DNA of 64,000 nt from Candidatus Nanosyncoccaceae bacterium (GCA_045590975.1 JAZNRZ010000001.1:10900-74899), one strand, 5' to 3'. Shown: positions 50,232 through 64,000, counted from the stretch's first letter. Notes: generated from the letters alone by a model not told the origin. Numbers and translations: made by a program.

Positions 50232-53021
50232 ATGAATAATATCTTGCACTTTCTTTTTACGCCAATCGTATGGATTCCAATCGTTGTAATCCTAGTGGTG
50301 TTAACGGTGCGAAATTACCGAAAACTTAATCGCATCAAAGTCCTCAATACCGAGAGCGCACTTTTGATGCTTGAAATTCCAAAAGACAACGACAAGAACG
50401 AACTTTCCGCAGAACAGATGTTTATGTCTCTGCACGGTATTTTGCGCGACGCAGAAGAATTAAAGAACTCTGGTGGCGTTCAGGAGCATCTTTCTTTCGA
50501 AATCGCTTCTACTGGCAATCAGATTCGTTTCTTTGTTTGGGTGCCAAAAATCTACCAGTCCTTCGTCGAAGGCCAGATTTATGCTCAGTATCCAAGCGTA
50601 CAAATCTATCGCATGAAGGAAGATTACGTTGATAGGCGCGAAAAATATCCCGTCGCTTATACTTCCGAAATTACCCTCACAGATAACGAAGCCCTGCCAA
50701 TCAAGACCTTCGATAGCTTCGAGGTAGACCCTCTCGCTGGTATTACTGCGACTCTCGCCAAACTTAATCCATCCGGCGGCGAAGAGATGTGGATCCAGAT
50801 TTTGACCCGTCCTATCGCTGACGATTGGCATAAAAAGAGCGACGAATGGATCAAGACTGTCAAAGAAGGTAAAAAAGGCGGCCTATTCGGCATTATTGAC
50901 GCAAAGTGGCTAGCAGAACTTTTTGCAGCACTCTGGAAACCACCAGAGGGCGGGGCTTCCGAAGTCAAAGTCGAACTTAGCGAACGCGATAAAACTCGTG
51001 TCGCCAAGGCCGAAGAGAAGGGCGATAAACTTGGTTACCAGGTAAAGATCCGCCTCGCTTACGTTGGCTCTAAAGAGGTGGATGCCAAGCTAAACATGCA
51101 GGCTCTTGTTGGTACTTTTAAGCAGTACAACTCTACCGTTCTTAACGGCTTCAAGATGACCAAAGCCAGCTTCGACAAAGACACTCTAAACGCCTACAAA
51201 GAGCGTCGTTTCGCAGATGACGGCTTCATTTTGAACGTCTCCGAGCTTGCTTCCGTTTACCACTTACCACATACAAGCGTCGAAACACCAAATATCGTTT
51301 GGGCTTCCAGCAAGACTGCCGAACCACCGGCCAAACTTCCACTCATGACAGGCGATCCAAATATCGACGAAAACATTTCTGCCTTTGGTTTGACAGATTT
51401 TCGTGGCATCAAGAACCAGTTCGGTATGTATCGCCGCGACCGTTCTCGCCATATCTATATCATTGGTCAGACCGGTTCTGGCAAGTCTGGTCTTTTGACC
51501 CTCTTTGGCTTGTCAGATATTTTCCATAACCAAGGTTATTGTATTATCGACCCACACGGCGACCTCGCAATGGATAACCTTCGCTTCGTGCCAGAATCTC
51601 GCATCAAAGACGTTGTCTACTTTAACCCAGCCGACACTCAGTACCCTATGGCCTTTAACCCGCTCGAAGTCGACGACCCGAGCCGCAAACCAAATATTTC
51701 TTCCGAGGTTATCGGCGTATTAAAGCGTATGTTCGGCGACTCTTGGGGTCCTCGTCTTGAGCACATTCTTCGCTATACTTTGCTCGCGCTTCTTGATCGC
51801 CCGAATACAACACTTCTAGATATTTCCCGCATGCTCACAGATACAGAATTCCGCAAAGAGACGCTTACTTATTGTAAGGACGTTACTGTTTTGCAGTTCT
51901 GGAAGAAAGAGTTCGGTTCCTGGAGCGATAAGCAGGTTACAGAATCTGTAGCACCTGTTCTTAACAAGGTCGGTGCCTTTACCGCAAACCCTATCGTTCG
52001 TAATATTATTGGTCAGCCAAAGTCTAGCTTTAATATCCGCAAGATTATGGACGAAGGCAAAATTCTTGTCGTAAATCTCTCCAAGGGTCTTATCGGCGAA
52101 GATAACGCTGGCCTCCTTGGCTCATTCCTTGTTACGAAAGTTCAGCTTGCCGCTATGTCTCGCTCGGATATCGAGAATGTCGAAGATCGCCGTCCATTCT
52201 ATCTATACGTAGACGAGTTCCAGAACTTCGCCACCGATTCTTTCTCGGTCATTCTTTCTGAGGCTCGCAAATACGGTCTAAACCTTACTGTTGCCAACCA
52301 GTATACTAGCCAGATGACCGATAGTGTTCGTGACGCCGTCTTTGGTAACGTTGGTACAACGATTTCCTTCCGTGTTTCCGCCGACGACGCACCAGTTCTT
52401 GCCAAGCAATTCGAACCAGTCTTTGAAGCACAAGATTTGCTCAACCTAAACAACCGCCACTTCGTCATCTCTATGATTATTAATGGCGAAAAGGTCCCTG
52501 CATTCTCCGCAACAACCCTAAGCATTCCAAAACCACCTCACGATATCACTCCACAAATTATTGAATACTCTCGCCAAACTTATGCACGCCCACGCGAAGA
52601 AGTCGAAAAAGATATTTCGGCTAGTATTGCTGCTGCAGATAAGTTCAAGAAAGAACTCTCAGATTCTGGCCGCGCCGCTGGTGAACGTGGTAGCCAAAAT
52701 CAAGGCAACAATTCTTCTAAGCCAGTCTTCAAATTCCAGCCAACCTTGCAGCAAGAATTCCGCAAACAAAAAATCTCACCAAACGCCGCTCAGGGCGAAG
52801 ACGAGAATGCCGGTAACGGCCTCCGCAACCTAGGCAAACTTTTTGCAGAGAAAGCCGCAACCATTAGCCCAAATATCAAAACCGAAGCATCAGAAGAAGA
52901 ATCAAAAGCAGACACGAGCGTCTCCGACGAAGCCGCCAAGCGCCCAATTATTAGCTCCGGCAACGGCAACAAAAACAGCAGACATAACAATAACCGAAAC
53001 CGCAATAAAAATCGCAAATAG
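50232..53021 (+). CDS. membrane-anchored TraD/VirD4/HerA-type (type IV secretion coupling-protein-like) ATPase
   Basis: N-terminal TM helix; Walker A IIGQTGSGKSGL; IIDPHGDL; Walker B LYVDEFQNF; basic low-complexity tail. Leaderless: TGATATAAT + 6 nt + ATG. Confidence 0.75.
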   Translation: MNNILHFLFTPIVWIPIVVILVVLTVRNYRKLNRIKVLNTESALLMLEIPKDNDKNELSAEQMFMSLHGILRDAEELKNSGGVQEHLSFEIASTGNQIRFFVWVPKIYQSFVEGQIYAQYPSVQIYRMKEDYVDRREKYPVAYTSEITLTDNEALPIKTFDSFEVDPLAGITATLAKLNPSGGEEMWIQILTRPIADDWHKKSDEWIKTVKEGKKGGLFGIIDAKWLAELFAALWKPPEGGASEVKVELSERDKTRVAKAEEKGDKLGYQVKIRLAYVGSKEVDAKLNMQALVGTFKQYNSTVLNGFKMTKASFDKDTLNAYKERRFADDGFILNVSELASVYHLPHTSVETPNIVWASSKTAEPPAKLPLMTGDPNIDENISAFGLTDFRGIKNQFGMYRRDRSRHIYIIGQTGSGKSGLLTLFGLSDIFHNQGYCIIDPHGDLAMDNLRFVPESRIKDVVYFNPADTQYPMAFNPLEVDDPSRKPNISSEVIGVLKRMFGDSWGPRLEHILRYTLLALLDRPNTTLLDISRMLTDTEFRKETLTYCKDVTVLQFWKKEFGSWSDKQVTESVAPVLNKVGAFTANPIVRNIIGQPKSSFNIRKIMDEGKILVVNLSKGLIGEDNAGLLGSFLVTKVQLAAMSRSDIENVEDRRPFYLYVDEFQNFATDSFSVILSEARKYGLNLTVANQYTSQMTDSVRDAVFGNVGTTISFRVSADDAPVLAKQFEPVFEAQDLLNLNNRHFVISMIINGEKVPAFSATTLSIPKPPHDITPQIIEYSRQTYARPREEVEKDISASIAAADKFKKELSDSGRAAGERGSQNQGNNSSKPVFKFQPTLQQEFRKQKISPNAAQGEDENAGNGLRNLGKLFAEKAATISPNIKTEASEEESKADTSVSDEAAKRPIISSGNGNKNSRHNNNRNRNKNRK

Positions 53022-54339: not shown

Positions 54340-55530
54340 ATGTATGAAATACCCGCAATCGAGAAGTTTTCCGATCCCTTTGTTTTCGCACAGATTACGG
54401 ATAACCCCATAGCAAAGAAGAGTGTCATTTTTAGACATTTCCACGCTATTGTTATCTGCGATTATCTTATGCATCCCAATCGGTCAAATATCGAAAACTA
54501 TTACCGCAGTATGTCTACGCTTCTGAAACAGCCAGAGAATACAAGGCTTGTCCTGTATCTCCCGCTCGAAGAACTGCAAGACGCACCAGATTATTTTCAG
54601 GCTAGCTACATGGCCGCCTGGAGAAAATGCCTGCGATTCGAAGACGTACGCGAAAATTTCAACCTTGGCGATAGCCTAGAAATATCCGCAAGAGACGAAA
54701 ATTTCCCCTACGTCACAAAAGCCGCCCACCTCATACCCTGGCTCCTGAAATACGGCTATCTTGGCGAGGCTTACGTTCTGGAGCTCCTAGAGCAAGGAAG
54801 CGATTGCCTTGTTCGAAGCATCTGCGACTGCGAAAAGATGTTCTATAGCATCTTTTTCCAGACTAGCCCAGAATTTCAGCTCCGCATCTCAAAGCGCGCT
54901 CGCAGTCTACCAAAGAGAGAAAGCAAACCACTCTATAATAGCCCCGAGCGACAGAGTTGGCTCGAAAAGCTCGCAGAAGAGCGGTGGGGTAAGCTCAAGC
55001 CTCGTAATATCACTGGACCTTTCTCGGATAACTATCACGTCTGGGATATAATACCGCCAACGGGCGACAAAATTATCCTTCTTGGAGGCTCCTACCTCAA
55101 AGGATACAGCGCCACGGTTAGCGATATCGACTCGTACGAATATGACGCAGACAAAATGCGAATAGAAAACTATTGCGACGAGCTAAGCGACCATTTGAAT
55201 ATTCCTGATCAAAATATCGCTCACATCTGTCTTAATACTGTCTGGATAAGTGAAAGAAATGATCTAAAGGAAATACAGAATGATTGCATTCGCCGCTATC
55301 TCGAACTAGCACCAAATTCTGTCGAGCGGAATCAGAGCCTCGAAAGATTAGAGCAAGACCTGCTCCAATATCGCCTCATGCACAAGGGCATCAAACGTAT
55401 CTACGAAAATGTTTCCGAAGCTACGAAACATTTTATGGGCATTGACGGCGCTAGCGCATTTTACGACCGACGCTATCGACGAATCGCCACCCAGCTTTTC
55501 GTAAAATACGTCTTCTTGCCTCAGCTTTAA
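54340..55530 (+). CDS. hypothetical protein with a minimal nucleotidyltransferase (Pol-beta fold) signature in the C-terminal half
   Basis: AAGGAGG lies 8 nt before the ATG. LLGGSYLKGYSATVSDIDSY fits G[GS]-x10-DxD. Confidence 0.6.
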   Translation: MYEIPAIEKFSDPFVFAQITDNPIAKKSVIFRHFHAIVICDYLMHPNRSNIENYYRSMSTLLKQPENTRLVLYLPLEELQDAPDYFQASYMAAWRKCLRFEDVRENFNLGDSLEISARDENFPYVTKAAHLIPWLLKYGYLGEAYVLELLEQGSDCLVRSICDCEKMFYSIFFQTSPEFQLRISKRARSLPKRESKPLYNSPERQSWLEKLAEERWGKLKPRNITGPFSDNYHVWDIIPPTGDKIILLGGSYLKGYSATVSDIDSYEYDADKMRIENYCDELSDHLNIPDQNIAHICLNTVWISERNDLKEIQNDCIRRYLELAPNSVERNQSLERLEQDLLQYRLMHKGIKRIYENVSEATKHFMGIDGASAFYDRRYRRIATQLFVKYVFLPQL

Positions 55531-55597: not shown

Positions 55598-55632
55598 AAA
55601 ATAGGGCGCCCCAAATCGGGACGCCCATTTTT
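55598..55632 (-). terminator. intrinsic terminator of the 4-gene operon
   Basis: Minus strand: GGGCGUCCC-GAUUU-GGGGCGCCC + U-run. Confidence 0.8.
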
Positions 55633-55650
55633 TATTCAGAGATGATTAGA

Positions 55651-56823
55651 TTAGAGAACCTCTTTGCCACCCAGACCACGAATACCACTCGGCGCATAGC
55701 CAAGCACGCTCCAGTCGATAGCACGGCTGAGCTGCCAGAGGGCAGTCAGATAACGAGGCTCCTCGCCAGGCGAAAGCTCGGAGAACTTTGTTGCCGACAG
55801 CACAAAACGCGTCAGCATCTTCTCCTGATGCACGAAGCTCGAAGAAATGTTCAGATTCAGAGCTTTCAGCATCTGATCACGATTAGCGTAGCCAGTCATT
55901 GCCGGAAGCTGCGGATTCTCAAGAGCCTTCTTGATCTCCATGGCATCATAAGCCAGAGCCGAAGCCGTTACGCCACCAAGTCCACCGAAGACGGAATTGA
56001 TTGCGTCATTCAGTGTTTCAGTTGCGCTCTGTACTCCAGTAAACGGCGGCGCCTGCGGAACCATGCCCATACCGCCACCAGCCAGCAGAGAAGCCCAAGC
56101 CATCGGATTATTTGCCGAAGAGCAGTAAGTCTCGTTCCAAGCATTAACTTCGTTGCTTACCGTATAGACTGCCGGCAGCAACTTGTCGTTAACCTTTTTC
56201 AGGAACTTCTTGCGCTCGGAATCCGTCACAAAACTACCATCCAGCCCTTCAATTGCGGAAAACAGGTCCGCATAAGAACGACGAGTCAGCAGCTTGCGCA
56301 GCTTGAAGAATTCAGGGCCAACCGGTTCGTCAGCATTCTCTGCATAGCTTCTCATAGCCTCTTCGAGACGCTTGGGAGCATCATAGAGACCACAGCGCTC
56401 AGCATATACCGCACGAACGACTGCAATATAGCTATCCTGATTTACCTTCAGAACACCGCCAGCCTTGAGAGCCGTCAGCCAACTTTCATCACTCGGCAGT
56501 TCCGGCAAAATTGCCAGATCAGGAGCGATTACAGTCGGCGTAGCCGTAGGCGCAGGCTCAGCCTTTTTGGTCTTTTCTGCAAGATAAGCCAGAAGCTTTC
56601 TTGCCTGGATAGTCTTCATGCCGCAAGAAACCAAATCTTCCTCGCTAACATAAGCCAAATCCTCCATGTTTTCGACGCCCTTCATATCAAGTCCGATAAA
56701 CACGTCATTTGAGGCGCCAAAACCTTCGAGGAAACCTCTGAGTTCGAGCTTAGCATCATCCATTACCGGAGTAGCCTCACCCTCTTTTTTGACAGCTGCC
56801 TTTGCTTCATCAATAATTGCCAT
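55651..56823 (-). CDS. hypothetical protein (390 aa), last gene of the operon
   Basis: The ATG overlaps the upstream stop (TAATG). N-terminal SAM/HhH-like segment MEDLAYVSEEDLVSCGMKTIQARKLLAYL, then a Pro/Thr/Ala linker and a helical C-domain. Confidence 0.75.
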   Translation of the reverse strand: MAIIDEAKAAVKKEGEATPVMDDAKLELRGFLEGFGASNDVFIGLDMKGVENMEDLAYVSEEDLVSCGMKTIQARKLLAYLAEKTKKAEPAPTATPTVIAPDLAILPELPSDESWLTALKAGGVLKVNQDSYIAVVRAVYAERCGLYDAPKRLEEAMRSYAENADEPVGPEFFKLRKLLTRRSYADLFSAIEGLDGSFVTDSERKKFLKKVNDKLLPAVYTVSNEVNAWNETYCSSANNPMAWASLLAGGGMGMVPQAPPFTGVQSATETLNDAINSVFGGLGGVTASALAYDAMEIKKALENPQLPAMTGYANRDQMLKALNLNISSSFVHQEKMLTRFVLSATKFSELSPGEEPRYLTALWQLSRAIDWSVLGYAPSGIRGLGGKEVL

Positions 56824-58181
56824 TACTTTTTCCTCCTTGGAATATAGTATTTGTCACGCTCGCTGCTGCCGAAGCTAAGCATGCAGAGCGGAACATCCAG
56901 GTAATTCGACAGTATATCCGCACACCGCAAAGCGATGGCCTTTTTACTGTCGGCGTATTCTTCATCAAAAGAATATGCATCGGTTACAATTCCAACCCTA
57001 TCAATCTTATTAAACAGATTGTAATTGCCCAAATCTTTCAAATCCGAATACTCTTCGTCATCAAGTTTGTAGGCTTTACAAATCGGCCAGTTTCCGTGAT
57101 CCAGAACCTGGTCCATGCAAGTCAACGCAATTCCGTCAAATTTTACCGGCCTTGAAACATCAAGAGCATAACGCATCAGTACCGTATCTATATAGCCATA
57201 GCGCGACGCACCCTGCCAACGATTGTTGTCTCTAGGCAAATCGCTCATATAGTTACTATCGGCGCTAGGCATAGGCCCAGCGCCATGACGATACTCATAG
57301 GCACGATGAACACCGATGTTTATAATCTCGCCTTCAAAGCCAGAAGCACGGAACATCTCCTCCGAAAAACAGGGAAGAGTTCTCAGGGCACTAACATGCG
57401 GCTTGAGACCGTACTCAGCATCCGTCAAAACTCCGTGCGAACGTTCAACGACGGCTATTTTGCCACGTTTACGCTTCATCAGAGTTTTAAGCGGTTCGAG
57501 ATCCAGTTTCTTGCCAACCTCGCGAAATTCATCGACAATCTCGTTATAGACATTGCTATCATCGATTGCTCGACAAATGTTCGTAAAGTGTATCTGATCA
57601 TTTTCGTCTAAATCATTGATGTCTACTCTTCTTGCTACTTCACGAGCACGCTCGCGCGCAGCATTAATCTTCTTGAGCAAATCCGCATCGAGCAAATCTC
57701 TCGCAAAAATCAAACGATTCATCGAAGCCAAGCTTTCCTGCAGGGAAGTAGCGTACTCCCTATAGGCTACACCTACTCCACTCCCAACGGTGCCACGCGG
57801 GTTTTGGCCGCGTGACATCTCGTTAATCTGCGAAATATACATGTGATAAGGAGTACTGCAAAGACATTCCGGACTAGCCGAAATCGTCTTAAAAGCATCG
57901 TAAATGCCGTAACGCCTGAGCGCTTCAGCTTCACGAAGCAGCATCGATGGAGCGATAACCATTCGCTTGGACAGATAGGTCTGAACCGCATTAAAAGTTC
58001 CACAACCCCACTGCGAAAAGCTGAAAGTTTCACCGCAAGCATCAATGCCATGCGAGCCCTGCGCTCCGCCTTCTTTAATAACCACTGCGGGATGAAAACG
58101 AGCACAGAGCGACTGAATAACAGAGCCTTTGCCTCCATCTCCTGGTCCCAGATCGGTAACCGTATATATCTTTTCTATCAT
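56823..58181 (-). CDS. highly divergent adenylosuccinate synthetase (PurA/PurZ superfamily)-like protein
   Basis: AAGGAGG lies 5 nt before ATG 58181. Motif comparisons: GDGGKGS (cf. GDEGKGK), VVIKEGGAQGSHG (cf. YQGGHNAGHT), RGTVGSGVGVAY (cf. TTGRGIGPAY), AYEYRHGAGPMPS (cf. AYTTRVGxGPFPTE), RWQGASRYGYIDTVLMRYA (cf. RRxGWxDxVxxR). Confidence 0.75.
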   Translation of the reverse strand: MIEKIYTVTDLGPGDGGKGSVIQSLCARFHPAVVIKEGGAQGSHGIDACGETFSFSQWGCGTFNAVQTYLSKRMVIAPSMLLREAEALRRYGIYDAFKTISASPECLCSTPYHMYISQINEMSRGQNPRGTVGSGVGVAYREYATSLQESLASMNRLIFARDLLDADLLKKINAARERAREVARRVDINDLDENDQIHFTNICRAIDDSNVYNEIVDEFREVGKKLDLEPLKTLMKRKRGKIAVVERSHGVLTDAEYGLKPHVSALRTLPCFSEEMFRASGFEGEIINIGVHRAYEYRHGAGPMPSADSNYMSDLPRDNNRWQGASRYGYIDTVLMRYALDVSRPVKFDGIALTCMDQVLDHGNWPICKAYKLDDEEYSDLKDLGNYNLFNKIDRVGIVTDAYSFDEEYADSKKAIALRCADILSNYLDVPLCMLSFGSSERDKYYIPRRKK

Positions 58182-58191
58182 CGAGACCTCC

Positions 58192-59289
58192 TTAGAGCCA
58201 TGCCGAGCTTTCACTCTCAGGCTCTGCACCAGCGTCATCCTCACGCTTAATAGCGGGAACAAGATCCGTCTTGTTTTCAAAGATATCTCCAGTCTTAGGA
58301 ATATAAACCTTATTCTGCTGCTCAAGCTCACGCTGAGCACCAAAGGGAAGAGCAAGCAGTGCATGGATAGCGTGCTCGATATCGAACGATGGCACCCCTT
58401 TACTCTTCAGGTATTTCTCTACCTCTTCGGGCTCAAGAATACCTTCGGTTATGCCAATGATTGCCGATTCAAATTCCGGCAGGTAATCTGTCGAGAGCAG
58501 AGGAATAATTCTACCCTCGAAATAACGCTGGTAAAACTTCTCTGCATCAATAGACAAGATAAAAGCATGTTTGTTCTTCTTTAAATCCTCTATCGTTTCC
58601 CTCAAATCAGGACGACTCAGCGGATTAAAGTCATAGCCGTTATCCTTCAGAGCTTCCCAAACTTTCTTGCCAAAGATTCTCTCCAGGACATCGCTCAAAA
58701 GGTTACCATGCATCGGAGCATCGGTGCACAAGAAGTAATAGCCCTTGAGTCCAATCTTATTCGTATAGGCCGAGGTAAGATAAGCCGAGGCAAACATCGA
58801 ATACTGCGGATCTTCAGGCACGTCTCCACCATTACGTTCAGGATTCATCTCAGAGAGATAGCCAACAATCTTGTCAGCCTCCATCTCGAACTGAGGGCGA
58901 TTCAGTACAAATTTATCGCATACATCACCAAAGAATCCCAAAGCCAGCTGAGGATCATATCCTGGCAGCATGGCAGAGCAAAGCTCGTAGGTCCTGGGTA
59001 ACGCAGACATCGCACGATCGACATTGTCCCCCATTGATCCAGTAGAATCTATCGAGGTTTCAATATCCATCGGGCAGCCAACAGTTACTTCCCACTTGCC
59101 ATCTTCGGTCGGGTCAAGGCGCAGCATCGAACGACGCAGCGTATCAACCGACGGATCTACAGACGGCGGAAGCTTTCCGGTTTCTCTTACGTGCTGCTCT
59201 CCCTTACGGGTAACATCTTTGTCGGAGGTAACCCCTCTCGACTTACGAGATGTATCATACGCAGCCTTGGAAAATACCAATCTTCCCAC
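58192..59289 (-). CDS. von Willebrand factor A (vWA) domain protein
   Basis: GTG start immediately after an in-frame TAA. MIDAS-like IDSTGSMGD, NGGDVPED, FLCTDAPMHG. The stop lies inside the SD of the next gene. Confidence 0.7.
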   Translation of the reverse strand: MGRLVFSKAAYDTSRKSRGVTSDKDVTRKGEQHVRETGKLPPSVDPSVDTLRRSMLRLDPTEDGKWEVTVGCPMDIETSIDSTGSMGDNVDRAMSALPRTYELCSAMLPGYDPQLALGFFGDVCDKFVLNRPQFEMEADKIVGYLSEMNPERNGGDVPEDPQYSMFASAYLTSAYTNKIGLKGYYFLCTDAPMHGNLLSDVLERIFGKKVWEALKDNGYDFNPLSRPDLRETIEDLKKNKHAFILSIDAEKFYQRYFEGRIIPLLSTDYLPEFESAIIGITEGILEPEEVEKYLKSKGVPSFDIEHAIHALLALPFGAQRELEQQNKVYIPKTGDIFENKTDLVPAIKREDDAGAEPESESSAWL

Positions 59290-59308
59290 TTAACATCACT
59301 ATCCTTTC

Positions 59309-60175
59309 TTAAACAAAGTTGTCGACGTTTTTCCAAACGCCATTTTTATTGAAGGTGAACGGATGATATCCTTTCCCCCACAAAGCATCAAGAAATTCAT
59401 AGTAGGCCACGTGAGCTTCCAGACCATTGTTAAAATAGCCTGTAAACCGCTTCAGCCAACTCATGAATTCGTCTTCGCCCTCAGTGTCATTCTTCTCAAC
59501 CCAAGAAAGGGTCGTATCGAACATACGGTCAATATTGAGTTTAGAGATCAAATCACAGTGCGAATAGGAACGGTCGCCGCCATGCAGGAGTTCATCAAAC
59601 CAACCTACATATACGACGCGGTGCTGTTTTGGCGCAATCAGAACCATGTCAGGGTTAAAATCCAAGCTACGACAGTTTTCACTCTCGTCAAGGAAGGCCT
59701 GGAGCTTCAAGAAGCGTCCAAGCACCCATGCGGCACTTTTTGCATCGACTTTCGTGTCATTCTTCAGCCTCAAAAACGGAACAAACTTGTCCCACGAAGC
59801 ATCCAAAACCGAAAAAGTGTTTATACGTCTATTGTCTGTAGCGTCACAAGAAAAACTTTGCTCACAAACAGGGAAGAGCCAGTCGTAGTGAATCTTACGA
59901 CCGTCATCACCCTGCTTCGAAATACGCTCCTGTTCGAGATTCCGAGACAATTCGCTCAGCTCGTCCAAAAGCTTCTTTTCGGCATACATGATGCCATTCT
60001 GGGCCTTACTTTTCACGACTCGGCAAAGCAATGCATCGGCAGAGTTTTCGCCTCTTCCAAGATACAGCTTGTAGTTATCTGTTTCTGCCAGTAAATTTCT
60101 CGGCGTGATACAGATGCCTTCGTTGCCATTAGGATCATTAATAACCAAATAAATCATCTCCTTTTCAAAATACAA
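59309..60175 (-). CDS. hypothetical protein with weak protein-kinase-like pattern, first gene of the operon
   Basis: YKLYLG...LLCRVVK, DFNPDMVLI and VVYVGWFDE fall at the positions of kinase beta3-Lys, catalytic loop and DFG. The start is uncertain: TTG 60175, or ATG/TTG just downstream of AAGGAG. Confidence 0.6.
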   Translation of the reverse strand: MYFEKEMIYLVINDPNGNEGICITPRNLLAETDNYKLYLGRGENSADALLCRVVKSKAQNGIMYAEKKLLDELSELSRNLEQERISKQGDDGRKIHYDWLFPVCEQSFSCDATDNRRINTFSVLDASWDKFVPFLRLKNDTKVDAKSAAWVLGRFLKLQAFLDESENCRSLDFNPDMVLIAPKQHRVVYVGWFDELLHGGDRSYSHCDLISKLNIDRMFDTTLSWVEKNDTEGEDEFMSWLKRFTGYFNNGLEAHVAYYEFLDALWGKGYHPFTFNKNGVWKNVDNFV

Positions 60176-60285
60176 AAAACGAGACCAAGCTCGCCTTTAT
60201 GAGTCATATCATAAACTATTTTACAGAGAAGGGCAAGGATAAGCGCTTATCACTTAGCACTTGCACTCACCTTGATAGACCATAG

Positions 60286-60320
60286 ACCGAACATGAACCG
60301 AACAGAGAAGTGGTACTTCC
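60286..60320. repeat. direct repeat, left copy
   Basis: ACCGAACA-TGA-ACCGAACA-GAGAAGTGGTACTTCC. Partner at 61102..61147. Confidence 0.7.
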
Positions 60321-60350
60321 CCGATCCCAATCTGTTTTTATATACCCCCT

Positions 60351-60402
60351 ACCCCTGTTTTTCAATATTTTACCCCTGTTCTACCTCTGTTACGACCCCT
60401 GT
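60351..60402. repeat. four phased iteron-like ACC(C/T)CTGT repeats
   Basis: Copies start at 60351, 60372, 60383 and 60395, giving spacings of 21, 11 and 12 bp. Confidence 0.7.
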
Positions 60403-60710
60403 AGGCACCAGAATAGCTCCAGAAGCGCAAATCCTTCAAAGCCGCAGAATCGCGCGTGTGATGATAATTAGCATAAGTAGTATAAATACTCGAAATGAAA
60501 TAGAAAATCGCACACACGCGAAAATAGGGCGGAAATACAAACAAATACCAGCCAGGGTCCAAAAAGCTGGTTGAAATAGACGCATGGACAATCGTCTTTT
60601 GTCTATATTTTTAATGTCGCACAATGTATATTTTACGACATAGGGCTATTATGCATCTCGACGTAAAGCCAATCGTCTATGTCGGAAGAATATATCTGTT
60701 AAACGGACTA

Positions 60711-60795
60711 CATATATACATATACTCACCTTTCTACATCTATAAATATATAAACGTATATCTAATCAACAATAATATACCTATACTGATCCTAA
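60711..60795. other. AT-rich, TATA-repeat tract
   Basis: CATATATACATATACTCACCTTTCTACATCTATAAATATATAAACGTATATCTAATCAACAATAATATACCTATAC. Confidence 0.6.
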
Positions 60796-61101
60796 TGAGC
60801 TGCAATATCACCTTAGAAGCAATCGAAAACGGCTACCCCTACCGCAAAAAGCGCTGGGGGAAGTCCTAGAACTTGACTTTTGTTTCGCCAAAATACGCGC
60901 GCCACCCCTGTAAAATCACATATTATAACATAATGTAAACCCTACAACACGCTCAATTTCCGTGAAATTTGCCCATTTTTGGCCATTTTTCAATTTTTCA
61001 CGCTCCTCTACCCGACCCCTTGTCCGAGACGATTTTTGCCTATTTTGCACCGCACCCATCGCAAACCTTCCCTAAAAGCGTACGGAATCGTCTCAAAACG
61101 A

Positions 61102-61147
61102 ACCGAACAAAAACCGAACACGAGAGTAGTAAAAGAAGTGGTCTTCC
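61102..61147. repeat. direct repeat, right copy (overlaps the terminator of the 61168 gene)
   Basis: ACCGAACA-AAA-ACCGAACA-CGAGAGTAGTAAAA-GAAGTGGTCTTCC. Confidence 0.7.
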
Positions 61148-61167
61148 AACCACTCCTTAAACCCTGC

Positions 61168-62978: not shown

Positions 62979-64000
62979 CTAAACTTTGCGAATCTGAATA
63001 GAGTTCGTGCCACCTTCAACATCGCGGAAGCCAGAAACTAGAACTACAGTAAGTTCAGTCTTGCCTTCTGGAAGCTTTAGGTAACCACTGTTCTTCAAAT
63101 CCTGAACTGCATCGAATGCGTAGTTCTCATCGAATTCGCGGACATATGCAGTGTTTGCAAAGCGAAGTGCTAGCTGACCAGCAACACGCTTGTCACTTGT
63201 AACGCTAACAATTGGCATGTTTGGACGCTGTGCTGCGATTGCGTTTGCAGTTTCACCGCTGCGGGTAGCAACTGCGATAACGTCAGCATCAAGATCGTTT
63301 GCCATCTTTACGGCTGCAGCTGCAAGAATATCATAATTCTTGTAGTTACCAACTGGTTCTGCTTCTAGTGGGCAGATTTCGCTATGATCCTGGGTATAAA
63401 GAATAATCTTCTTCATAGTCTTGATAGCTTCGATTGGATACTTACCGTTTGCAGATTCATCGGAAAGCATTGTTGCGTCTGCGCCAAGAAGAACGGCTGT
63501 AGCAACGTCGTTAACCTCTGCACGAGTTGGTTCTGGGTTGTCTACCATGCTACCAAGCATCTGAGTTGCAACGATACAGAGCTTAGAATGCTGGCGAGAT
63601 AGAGCCAAGAGCTTGCGCTCAACGATAGGAACGATTTCTGCGCCTGCCTCGATAGCAAGGTCGCCACGAGCAACCATGATACCATCGGAAGCCTTAACGA
63701 TTTCTTCAAGATTTTCGTCTGTTTCGACAGCTTTCTTGGTTTCAATCTTTGCAACAATCTTTGCGCGGCTACCAAAACCAACAAGAAGCTGGCGGATGCG
63801 CTCAATATCTGCAGCGGTCTGAATAAAGCTTACGGCAACATAGTCGAAGTCGCGGCTTGCACCAAACTCTAGGTCGGCCTTATCCTTTTCAGTCAAGATG
63901 TTGCCACCAAGATCGGTTTCTGGAAGGTTGATACCCTTGCGGCTCTGAATATGACCATCGTTAAGAATACGGACCTTGATAGCGGTATCGGAAACGATTT
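62979..64000 (-). CDS. pyk: pyruvate kinase, C-terminal two thirds; 5' end outside window
   Basis: The frame stays open upstream of the track start: ...GHIQSRKGINLPETDLGGNILTEKDKADLEFG..., MVARGDLAIE, C-terminal regulatory domain. Confidence 0.93.
   Translation of the reverse strand, partial: IVSDTAIKVRILNDGHIQSRKGINLPETDLGGNILTEKDKADLEFGASRDFDYVAVSFIQTAADIERIRQLLVGFGSRAKIVAKIETKKAVETDENLEEIVKASDGIMVARGDLAIEAGAEIVPIVERKLLALSRQHSKLCIVATQMLGSMVDNPEPTRAEVNDVATAVLLGADATMLSDESANGKYPIEAIKTMKKIILYTQDHSEICPLEAEPVGNYKNYDILAAAAVKMANDLDADVIAVATRSGETANAIAAQRPNMPIVSVTSDKRVAGQLALRFANTAYVREFDENYAFDAVQDLKNSGYLKLPEGKTELTVVLVSGFRDVEGGTNSIQIRKV

Follow-up and report, generated by a model that had tools for sequence, protein, structure and literature searches.

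A divergent PurA-family protein in a five-gene cassette of Patescibacteria, with vWA and kinase-like partners that also occur in large phages

The locus and its genes

The window, a stretch of 64,000 nucleotides (nt) from a Candidatus Nanosyncoccaceae bacterium (GCA_045590975.1, JAZNRZ010000001.1:10900-74899; positions are counted from its first letter), contains a cluster of five genes, g1 to g5, in which a PurA-family enzyme stands in an undescribed partnership. The PurA-like protein, which we call P, is encoded by g3 (56823-58181, minus strand, ATG start, 452 amino acids (aa)). Upstream of it on the same strand are g1 (59309-60148), which encodes a kinase-fold protein of ~279 aa without a J-domain (K), as judged from profile searches and hhalign comparisons, and g2 (58192-59289, GTG start, 365 aa), which encodes a predicted von Willebrand factor type A (vWA) protein (V). 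Downstream is g4 (55651-56823, minus strand, 390 aa), and g5 (54340-55530, plus strand, 396 aa) is convergent with it. The open reading frame (ORF) called for g1 extends to 60175 (59309-60175, minus strand), and its start is likely the TTG at 60148, which lies 9 nt after AAAGGAG and gives an N-terminus that agrees with that of a homologue. The GTG start of g2 yields the N-terminal Met-Gly that is invariant in its family.

The minus-strand genes are closely spaced. The gap between g1 and g2 is 19 nt, the TAA stop of g2 (58194-58192) lies inside AAGGAGG, with the ATG of g3 7 nt further on, and the stop of g3 overlaps the start of g4 as TAATG at 56823. A reading made earlier from the sequence of the window by itself (hereafter the sequence-only reading) had described four coupled minus-strand genes with these junctions and one terminator, and all of this is confirmed in the sequence. 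The terminator is a strong hairpin between g4 and g5 (55604-55626) that is T-rich on both sides; read from 55626 to 55604 it has a 10-bp stem with 8 GC pairs, followed by a T-run. The same reading took the nucleotidyltransferase-like gene g5 for a divergent neighbour of a four-gene unit. In fact g5 converges on g4 and shares its terminator, and five genes are conserved, not four.

Distribution among Patescibacteria

One genome per GTDB species was scanned, which gave 80 loci, and 85 related loci, nearly all of them labelled as Patescibacteria (Candidate Phyla Radiation, CPR), were analyzed by searching all ORFs with iterative hidden Markov models (HMMs), followed by all-against-all clustering. 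Most of the 85 loci have the fixed order g1-g2-g3-g4 followed by convergent g5. Only five families are common to the loci, each being present in 68-80 of them, and the next family, from the flanks, is present in 11. The loci come from Saccharibacteria, Falkow-, Moran-, Uhr-, Wildermuth- and Daviesbacteria, Paceibacterota and Peribacteria, with Parcubacteria and Microgenomates also named; a few metagenome-assembled genomes (MAGs) carry the labels Gammaproteobacteria, Fibrobacteres, Omnitrophota or Fimivivens, which we suspect to reflect mis-binning. The flanks vary by lineage, and include SecE/NusG, SecY/RpoC, and pyruvate kinase-phosphoglycerate kinase (PGK) with a VirD4-like ATPase. L005, the distinct genome that lies closest, is syntenic in this region, and its cassette proteins are 63-81% identical to those of the window, compared with 71% for PGK.

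What the loci lack is equally uniform. No purine-pathway gene, purB included, is present within +/-8 kb in any of the 85 loci, in line with the sequence-only reading, which had noted none beside g3. A PP2C phosphatase is absent from all of them. In PADLOC-DB 2.0, neither the five proteins of the cassette nor two neighbours upstream of it have a match (E<=0.01), and no effector domain is evident in the cassette, whether nuclease, pore or TIR-type. The five genes form a self-contained cassette that appears to be inherited as a unit throughout Patescibacteria. The breadth of lineages, the synteny, the PGK-like divergence and the housekeeping flanks fit a vertically inherited locus under purifying selection, and not a defence island. 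The sequence-only reading had allowed that g3 might be an ordinary purA among neighbours without co-conservation; the neighbours prove to be strongly co-conserved, and g3 is not an ordinary purA.

Some loci depart from the single-copy arrangement. Locus L070 has two inverted partial copies of the cassette, L022 and L085 have an extra g1 (with an extra g2 in L085), and one MAG has two full cassettes on separate contigs (L025 and L035). Three IMG/VR contigs that are filed as viral, one of them 408 kb long, bear a CPR-type cassette (L086-L088). L086 and L088 include g4 and g5, with g5 co-directional with g4 in L088, and L087 has g1-g3 only, its locus ending soon after g3. These three contigs look like Patescibacteria DNA rather than phage.

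The PurA-family protein

P matches the Pfam family PF00709 (Adenylsucc_synt) over its full length (E 3.6e-36, 125 bits), and is the only one of the CPR cassette proteins to be matched in scans of Pfam, NCBIfam and PHROGs, apart from a weak SAM_TNK match of the g4 product. Its scores against the purA equivalogs are far below their cutoffs (99.2 vs 402 bits for NF002223; 87.9 vs 395.55 bits for TIGR00184). The nearest solved relatives are bacterial PurA structures (E 1e-18), with E. coli PurA at 66 bits, and at E<=1e-3 the sequence matches in PDB include no chain named PurZ. The exact sequence of the window's P is not on record, but homologues form more than 600 clusters at 90% identity, mostly from Candidatus Saccharibacteria, and are labelled “adenylosuccinate synthetase” in GenBank. 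The PurA motifs that the sequence-only reading had listed for g3 are all present in the translation, and its view that the gene is far from housekeeping PurA is borne out both by the scores (99 vs 402 bits) and by changes in the pockets.

These changes are seen when E. coli PurA is aligned to 80 CPR and 77 viral P sequences. The residues of catalysis, Asp13, Lys16 and His41, are kept in all 80 and all 77, and the glycine-rich P-loop is kept in both groups; in the window it reads GDGGKGS (58122-58142, minus strand) and contains the equivalents of Asp13 and Lys16, while Glu14 is replaced by Gly in CPR P. Asp333, which determines guanine specificity, is kept in 80/80 CPR and 57/77 viral sequences, and in CPR P Ser414 and Gly416 are kept in 78/80 and 80/80. 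The residues that bind GTP and transfer the phosphoryl group are therefore strictly constrained.

The substrate sites are different. The aspartate-binding GATTGR loop of PurA is replaced by NRWQG (57210-57224, minus strand), and remodelling of this loop is universal (80/80 CPR and 77/77 viral P). Thr300 becomes Trp or Tyr in all CPR sequences (Phe, His, Trp or Tyr in viral ones), Thr301 becomes Gln (80/80, and also in viral P), Arg303 is deleted (80/80, likewise in viral P), and Arg305 becomes Val or Ile (80/80; Leu, Phe or Ile in viral P), so that a conserved pocket of more hydrophobic character takes the place of the aspartate pocket. Elsewhere, Asn38 is Gln in 80/80 CPR and 76/77 viral sequences, Val273 is His in both groups, and Thr129 is Ile or Val in 78/80 CPR sequences and Cys or Val in viral ones. 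Arg143 has no aligned equivalent in CPR P (a gap in 75/80) or in three phage sequences examined. The nucleotide pocket of CPR P is altered beyond that of viral P: Gln224 is His in 79/80 CPR sequences but kept in 77/77 viral ones, and Thr239 is Ser in 79/80 but kept in 76/77.

Since neither the IMP (inosine monophosphate) ligands nor the aspartate loop of PurA is retained, P falls outside the purA equivalog family. Replacements that are invariant across phyla point to a new specificity, not to decay. P forms a distinct PurA clade, whose GTP-binding and catalytic core is intact and whose substrate pockets are rebuilt.

The vWA protein

V has zero sequence matches in Pfam, NCBIfam, PHROGs or PDB, even when these are sought across 55 homologues. 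An AlphaFold2 model built with 48 homologues has a mean predicted local distance difference test (pLDDT) value of 90.6 and a predicted template modelling (pTM) score of 0.90, and its best Foldseek matches are integrin beta I-like (vWA) domains (E 1e-6, probability 1.0). The motif D81-S-T83-G-S85 (59035-59049, minus strand) is of the metal-ion-dependent adhesion site (MIDAS) type and is kept in homologues; D81, T83, S85 and D190 are invariant in 48-55 of these, and the DxTGS motif is present in the phage V proteins also. Because these four residues are invariant, the metal site is intact, and V is a MIDAS-bearing vWA protein. The vWA assignment of the sequence-only reading is thereby upheld.

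Both ends of the protein are conserved. The Met-Gly N-terminus is present in 48/48 CPR homologues and 69/74 viral ones, as part of a motif MGxxx(W/F)(S/D)xxx(Y/W). The last residue is nearly always hydrophobic (of 74 viral proteins, 26 end in Leu, 20 in Trp and 17 in Ile, Val or Phe), and CPR V ends in -WL, on a tail that is predicted to be disordered. A hydrophobic last residue on such a tail suggests a docking motif.

The kinase-like protein

A profile of the K family has two weak but colinear matches in PDB, both to CK2-type protein kinases. The decisive evidence for a kinase fold is homology to phage kinases; in an hhalign comparison of the g1 family with gp262 of a mycobacteriophage (see below) the probability is 98.9% (E 2.7e-17). 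In CPR K the column of the catalytic-loop Asp contains Ile, Val, Asp, Asn or Leu, that of the catalytic-loop Lys contains Ser, Asn or Asp, and the DFG position contains Asn, Asp or Gly (Gly in the window protein). K is therefore a degenerate protein kinase, its catalytic residues not being conserved. The “kinase-like” label given by the sequence-only reading holds in the sense that K is homologous to phage J-domain Ser/Thr kinases, but not in the sense of an active enzyme. Among viral K proteins the HPD motif of the J-domain is present in 24/37, and the catalytic Asp in only 2/37, so that K is mostly a pseudokinase in phages as well.

The Patescibacteria-specific proteins

The g4 product has an N-terminal head of five helices that is SAM/HhH-like (residues ~23-87), and has a weak SAM_TNK match in Pfam. 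Its AlphaFold2 model is all-helical (pLDDT 87), and fold searches with this model in PDB and BFVD are without a match (best E in PDB 0.34). Against 1.84 billion proteins, the g4 profile finds only a family of the same length (~375 clusters at 50% identity, all ~400 aa). The g4 product is thus a novel helical protein that is confined to Patescibacteria.

In g5, the motif GGSx2KGYx5SDxD (55087-55131) is nearly invariant, as are residues G250, S251, D262 and D264. Among 60 homologues, 18 match PF18765 and 17 match PF01909, and there are weak PDB matches to HI0073, GLD-2 and LinA. By these motifs and matches, g5 belongs to the Pol-beta nucleotidyltransferase superfamily. No counterpart of g4 or g5 is found in phages by tblastn or HMM searches. 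The nucleotidyltransferase gp3 of the mycobacteriophages was considered as a counterpart of g5 and rejected, as it belongs to the RlaP family and its hhalign probability against g5 is 0.2%.

Related genes in phages

When P is compared with GenBank phages by tblastn, the best matches are in 201 cluster-C1 mycobacteriophages (Bixzunavirus, e.g., Bxz1, I3 and MikeLiesIn). Their proteins (gp265 in MikeLiesIn) are annotated as “PurA-like adenylosuccinate synthetase” and are 26% identical to P over 98% of the length, with a score (121 bits) above that of E. coli PurA (66 bits). Just upstream are gp262, annotated as a “serine/threonine kinase”, gp263, a 351-aa hypothetical protein, and an 88-aa protein (gp264). 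gp262 matches Pfam Pkinase above its cutoff and a J-domain weakly, and gp263 corresponds to V (hhalign probability 98.1% against the g2 family, E 6.6e-14, with the DxTGS site included). In hmmsearch the phage counterparts are recovered at 1e-19 for K, 6e-22 for V and 9e-64 for P.

The association extends to other viruses. V adjoins P in Rhizobium phage RHph_Y65 and Vibrio phage phiTY18, and at least 533 IMG/VR contigs encode a relative of V. Of 84 viral loci that were examined, 78 contain P, with a V-P pattern in 37 and a K-V-P pattern in 31. In PHROGs, V corresponds to phrog_2971 (“unknown function”) and K to phrog_3043 (“kinase”), and P falls within phrog_1211. The viral neighbours are otherwise variable, and include T4-type structural genes, NAMPT, Prs-like proteins, R2K ATP-grasp proteins, LemA and DNA ligase. 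A neighbour-joining tree groups CPR P with the mycophage proteins and 12 IMG/VR contigs, with 64 other viral P sequences as the sister group; the tree is coarse, and no direction of transfer is inferred from it. We take the K-V-P triad to be an older module, one that large lytic phages carry as well.

Two variations on this arrangement were observed. A 202-aa family without a Pfam match is encoded directly upstream of V in 20/84 viral loci (for example, at 6389-6994 of L136), and may be an alternative to K. In an uncultured 485-kb phage (LR745208, 5815-8778), a J-domain Ser/Thr kinase is followed by V. This kinase is apparently active, judging from its motifs (HPD; HGDIKPQN...DFG) and a Pkinase score of 101 bits. 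V is followed here by a pyruvate-kinase-barrel-like protein instead of P, so that the third partner has been swapped.

Signals and context in the window

Upstream of g1 there is a promoter-like site, TTGCCC-17-TATGAT (60208-60236, minus strand), which was found by a consensus scan and is only putatively functional. Between this site and the g1 start is a short hairpin with a T-run (60175-60198, minus strand). L005, a relative at 72% identity, keeps both the promoter-like site and the leader hairpin, the latter differing by changes in the stem. The hairpin is possibly an operon leader or attenuator.

About 1 kb upstream of g1 is non-coding (60149-61167). It contains a 220-nt block (60463-60680, read on the minus strand) that is 83% identical to L005, compared with only ~70% for the flanking proteins, and that has sub-blocks which are almost invariant. 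This block may be a lineage-specific non-coding RNA or regulatory element of unknown type; Rfam gives zero matches at gathering score or at E<=1 for the region upstream of the operon, the block included. The sequence-only reading had placed iterons here, but just weak two-copy repeats are detected.

That reading had also noted CCC/CCG-rich codons along with island-type Shine-Dalgarno sequences. The cassette genes are indeed rich in CCC and CCG and poor in CCA for proline, but other minus-strand genes of the window are the same, and the main axis of codon usage in the window splits genes by coding strand. Since the bias tracks the coding strand, it does not mark an island. Along the window GC content is flat, and a signature of horizontal transfer was rejected for these two reasons. 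GC skew stays negative across the whole window, its cumulative curve is monotonic, and nothing inside the 64 kb looks like a replication origin or terminus.

Two neighbouring genes deserve mention. A 929-aa type IV coupling ATPase of the VirD4/TrwB type is encoded at 50232-53021 (plus strand), three genes from the cassette in the window's lineage only; the L005 homologue also has DUF8128. It is part of the chromosomal type IV secretion system that has been described for Patescibacteria. On the other side is a fragment of the pyruvate kinase gene (62979-63896), whose protein is 97% identical to that of L005, compared with 71% for the adjoining pgk and 63-81% for the cassette. This excess over the neighbours suggests that pyk has recently been exchanged between lineages, by recombination or transfer.

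Proposed function and alternatives

The reading that we favour, tentatively and with rather less than even confidence, is that the module is a vWA-partnered, GTP-driven purine C6 ligase which uses an amine other than aspartate and serves nucleotide scavengers. P would still be an enzyme, in which GTP activates a purine-type carbonyl and a non-aspartate amine replaces it. The product would then not be adenylosuccinate, and no PurB step would be implied. P would act in complex with V, as their genes almost always lie side by side and are translationally coupled here. K would serve as a non-catalytic scaffold or regulator, with the J-domain of the phage proteins recruiting the host's DnaK, and g4 and g5 could supply CPR-only adaptors or regulators, for example by nucleotidylylation as GlnE does on glutamine synthetase. 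The most likely role would be the reprocessing of purine nucleotides from the host, since large phages depend on host nucleotides and so, as far as is known, do CPR epibionts.

Several points weigh against this proposal. Every step beyond a GTP-binding PurA-fold enzyme with altered pockets is one that we infer. We know of no PurA or BioD-like enzyme that has a vWA partner. CPR P has lost the contacts to the 5'-phosphate of IMP, so that its acceptor may be something other than a free nucleotide. Finally, some of the genes near the phage triads are anti-defence genes of the NAD-salvage type (nicotinamide adenine dinucleotide; NAMPT, Nmnat/Nudix), which would also fit a role in conflict.

Such a conflict system, as proposed by the sequence-only reading, is the best placed of the alternatives; it is supported only in part, and we consider it unlikely. 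Here a nucleotide would be made or destroyed as an immune or counter-immune act, for anti-defence in phages and for defence or host manipulation in CPR, with V and K as the sensor. The triad is abundant in large lytic phages, and in some of them it lies near genes of NAD reconstitution (NAMPT, Prs-like, Nmnat/Nudix); pairs of vWA and kinase proteins are sensor modules in conflict systems such as TerY-P and vWA-ternary systems, and some MAGs have extra or duplicated copies. In CPR, however, the cassette behaves as a vertically inherited core locus would, being spread over many lineages, syntenic in a related genome, with housekeeping flanks, and single-copy in most loci (with extra partial copies in L022, L070 and L085). 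Its proteins are conserved like PGK, unlike defence systems, which are usually patchy and fast-evolving; the kinase is catalytically dead in most members; and the five proteins lack both a PADLOC match and a nuclease, pore or TIR-type effector.

The loss of the 5'-phosphate contacts in CPR P also fits another alternative, which we regard as improbable, namely that the ligase is directed at a macromolecule. P would join a purine nucleotide through C6 to an amine of a protein, or would modify or re-aminate a 6-oxopurine in RNA or DNA. This reading is suggested by the invariant N-terminal Gly of V and its MGxxx(W/F) motif. The Gly would be the prime protein candidate, although it may be purely structural, and the rebuilt pocket is aromatic and hydrophobic, as would suit a peptide ligand rather than a dicarboxylate. 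For nucleic acids, several phages have a PNKP phosphatase, an RlaP nucleotidyltransferase, HIRAN or an Rv2179c-like exoribonuclease nearby, but these neighbours are inconsistent between phages; in CPR, g4 has a SAM/HhH-like head and g5 resembles the palms of GLD-2 and MTPAP. The chemistry is without precedent on proteins or polymers. In its most specific form, to which we give a slightly lower probability still, P would be a “purinyl-transferase” that couples the GTP-activated C6 of a 6-oxopurine to the alpha-amine of the V Gly, or to some other macromolecular amine, to give a covalent N6-linked conjugate. A less exotic alternative is the one-step amination of IMP to AMP (adenosine monophosphate) with ammonia, which would make PurB unnecessary.

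It is doubtful that P is an ordinary, fast-evolving adenylosuccinate synthetase that makes AMP from salvaged IMP, with neighbours that are unrelated or only regulatory. The full-length Adenylsucc_synt match, the GenBank label, the retained catalytic triad and GTP-specificity residues, and the need of CPR for purine interconversion all agree with this, but the scores are a quarter of the equivalog cutoffs, and all four ligands of the aspartate loop, together with four of those for IMP, are invariantly changed or lost over 80 sequences, which indicates selection for a different pocket rather than drift. In addition, purB is seen in no neighbourhood (+/-8 kb), and co-conservation with V is strict in CPR and phages. 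Equally doubtful is a non-enzymatic GTP switch, in which P senses a nucleotide or assembles and, with the MIDAS adaptor and the pseudokinase (and DnaK in phages), remodels a protein complex; NTPase-vWA pairs in which the MIDAS grips a client are common (MoxR, chelatase, midasin), and the HPD J-domain of 24/37 viral K proteins and the dead kinase site would suit it, but PurA-fold proteins are not known as switches, and the invariance of the PurA general base, general acid and Lys in 157/157 sequences is difficult to account for unless a phosphoryl group is passed to an acceptor.

Genome surveys also use PurA to mark purine biosynthesis (e.g., bioRxiv 10.64898/2026.06.21.733656).

P is routinely annotated as adenylosuccinate synthetase, and if it does not make adenylosuccinate, reconstructions of CPR metabolism and of phage “auxiliary metabolic genes” are wrong at this point. 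Should the acceptor prove to be a new amine or a macromolecule, the chemistry of the PurA/PurZ family would be extended; a purinyl-transferase would be an undescribed post-translational chemistry that large phages and CPR bacteria have in common. A large part of bacterial diversity lies in Patescibacteria, for which the conserved lineage-specific genes mostly have no assigned function, and the cassette is a defined unit with a tractable enzymatic core. This core is present in hundreds of large phages, including Bxz1 and I3, which are widely used, growable and engineerable, so that function is directly testable.

Comparison with known systems

We found no description of the module in the literature that was searched, in agreement with the sequence-only reading, which knew of no system with these parts. 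Searches for PurA or adenylosuccinate together with Patescibacteria, Saccharibacteria, CPR, mycobacteriophage or vWA gave no such description, which could exist elsewhere, and neither did a search for Patescibacteria with von Willebrand and nucleotidyltransferase. Phage genome announcements just name the triad genes, and no functional study was found; the PurA-like enzyme is unmentioned in the text and supplements of the Southlakia transposon-sequencing paper.

The closest relatives outside CPR are the triads of the cluster-C1 mycophages, which have the same K-V-P order. Their P shares the signature of CPR P (N38Q, V273H, T301Q, deleted R303 and a hydrophobic residue for R305), and their V likewise has the DxTGS site and begins with MG. 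The phages differ from CPR in that P keeps Gln224 and Thr239, K has a J-domain, and there is no homologue of g4 or g5. In the mycophages there is also a small gene, gp264, between V and P, and the nearby nucleotidyltransferase, gp3, is of the RlaP family.

With PurA itself (E. coli, PDB 1ADE), P shares the fold, a full-length alignment, the P-loop, Asp13, Lys16, His41, Asp333 and Ser414. It differs in N38Q, T129I/V, Q224H and V273H, in having no aligned R143, and in the replacement of GATTGRRR by NRWQG-xxR; in addition, P has an obligate vWA neighbour and no purB nearby (+/-8 kb). Phage PurZ, of the 2-aminoadenine (dZ) pathway, is likewise a PurA-family enzyme that has been recruited to a non-IMP reaction, and the PHROG family of P bears a PurZ-style label. 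PurZ uses aspartate and needs a lyase, and travels with datZ, mazZ and dpoZ; to our knowledge it has no vWA or kinase partner. The cassette is not a PurZ pathway, because it has none of these three genes (there is no deoxynucleoside triphosphatase or polymerase among the five families) and because the aspartate site is absent.

The TerY-P triads likewise have a vWA gene beside a gene with a protein-kinase fold, and the sequence-only reading had likened the locus to a TerY-P-type module. The likeness does not hold, because there is no PP2C, no TerY-type vWA match (Pfam) and no active kinase, K being degenerate; the third partner here is a PurA-like enzyme instead. For g5, the GS...DxD minimal core is shared with regulatory Pol-beta nucleotidyltransferases (MNT/HI0073, GlnE-type), from which it differs by an N-terminal region of 240-400 residues that matches nothing, and by its convergent position outside the operon.

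In MoxR-vWA, BchI/BchD and CobS/CobT, a P-loop NTPase gene also lies beside a gene for a MIDAS vWA protein, and the products are presumed partners. The NTPase of those pairs is an AAA+ ring, whereas P has a PurA/BioD-type ligase fold with its group-transfer site intact. Taken together, the module most resembles PurA/PurZ at the level of P, and NTPase-vWA pairs in its architecture.

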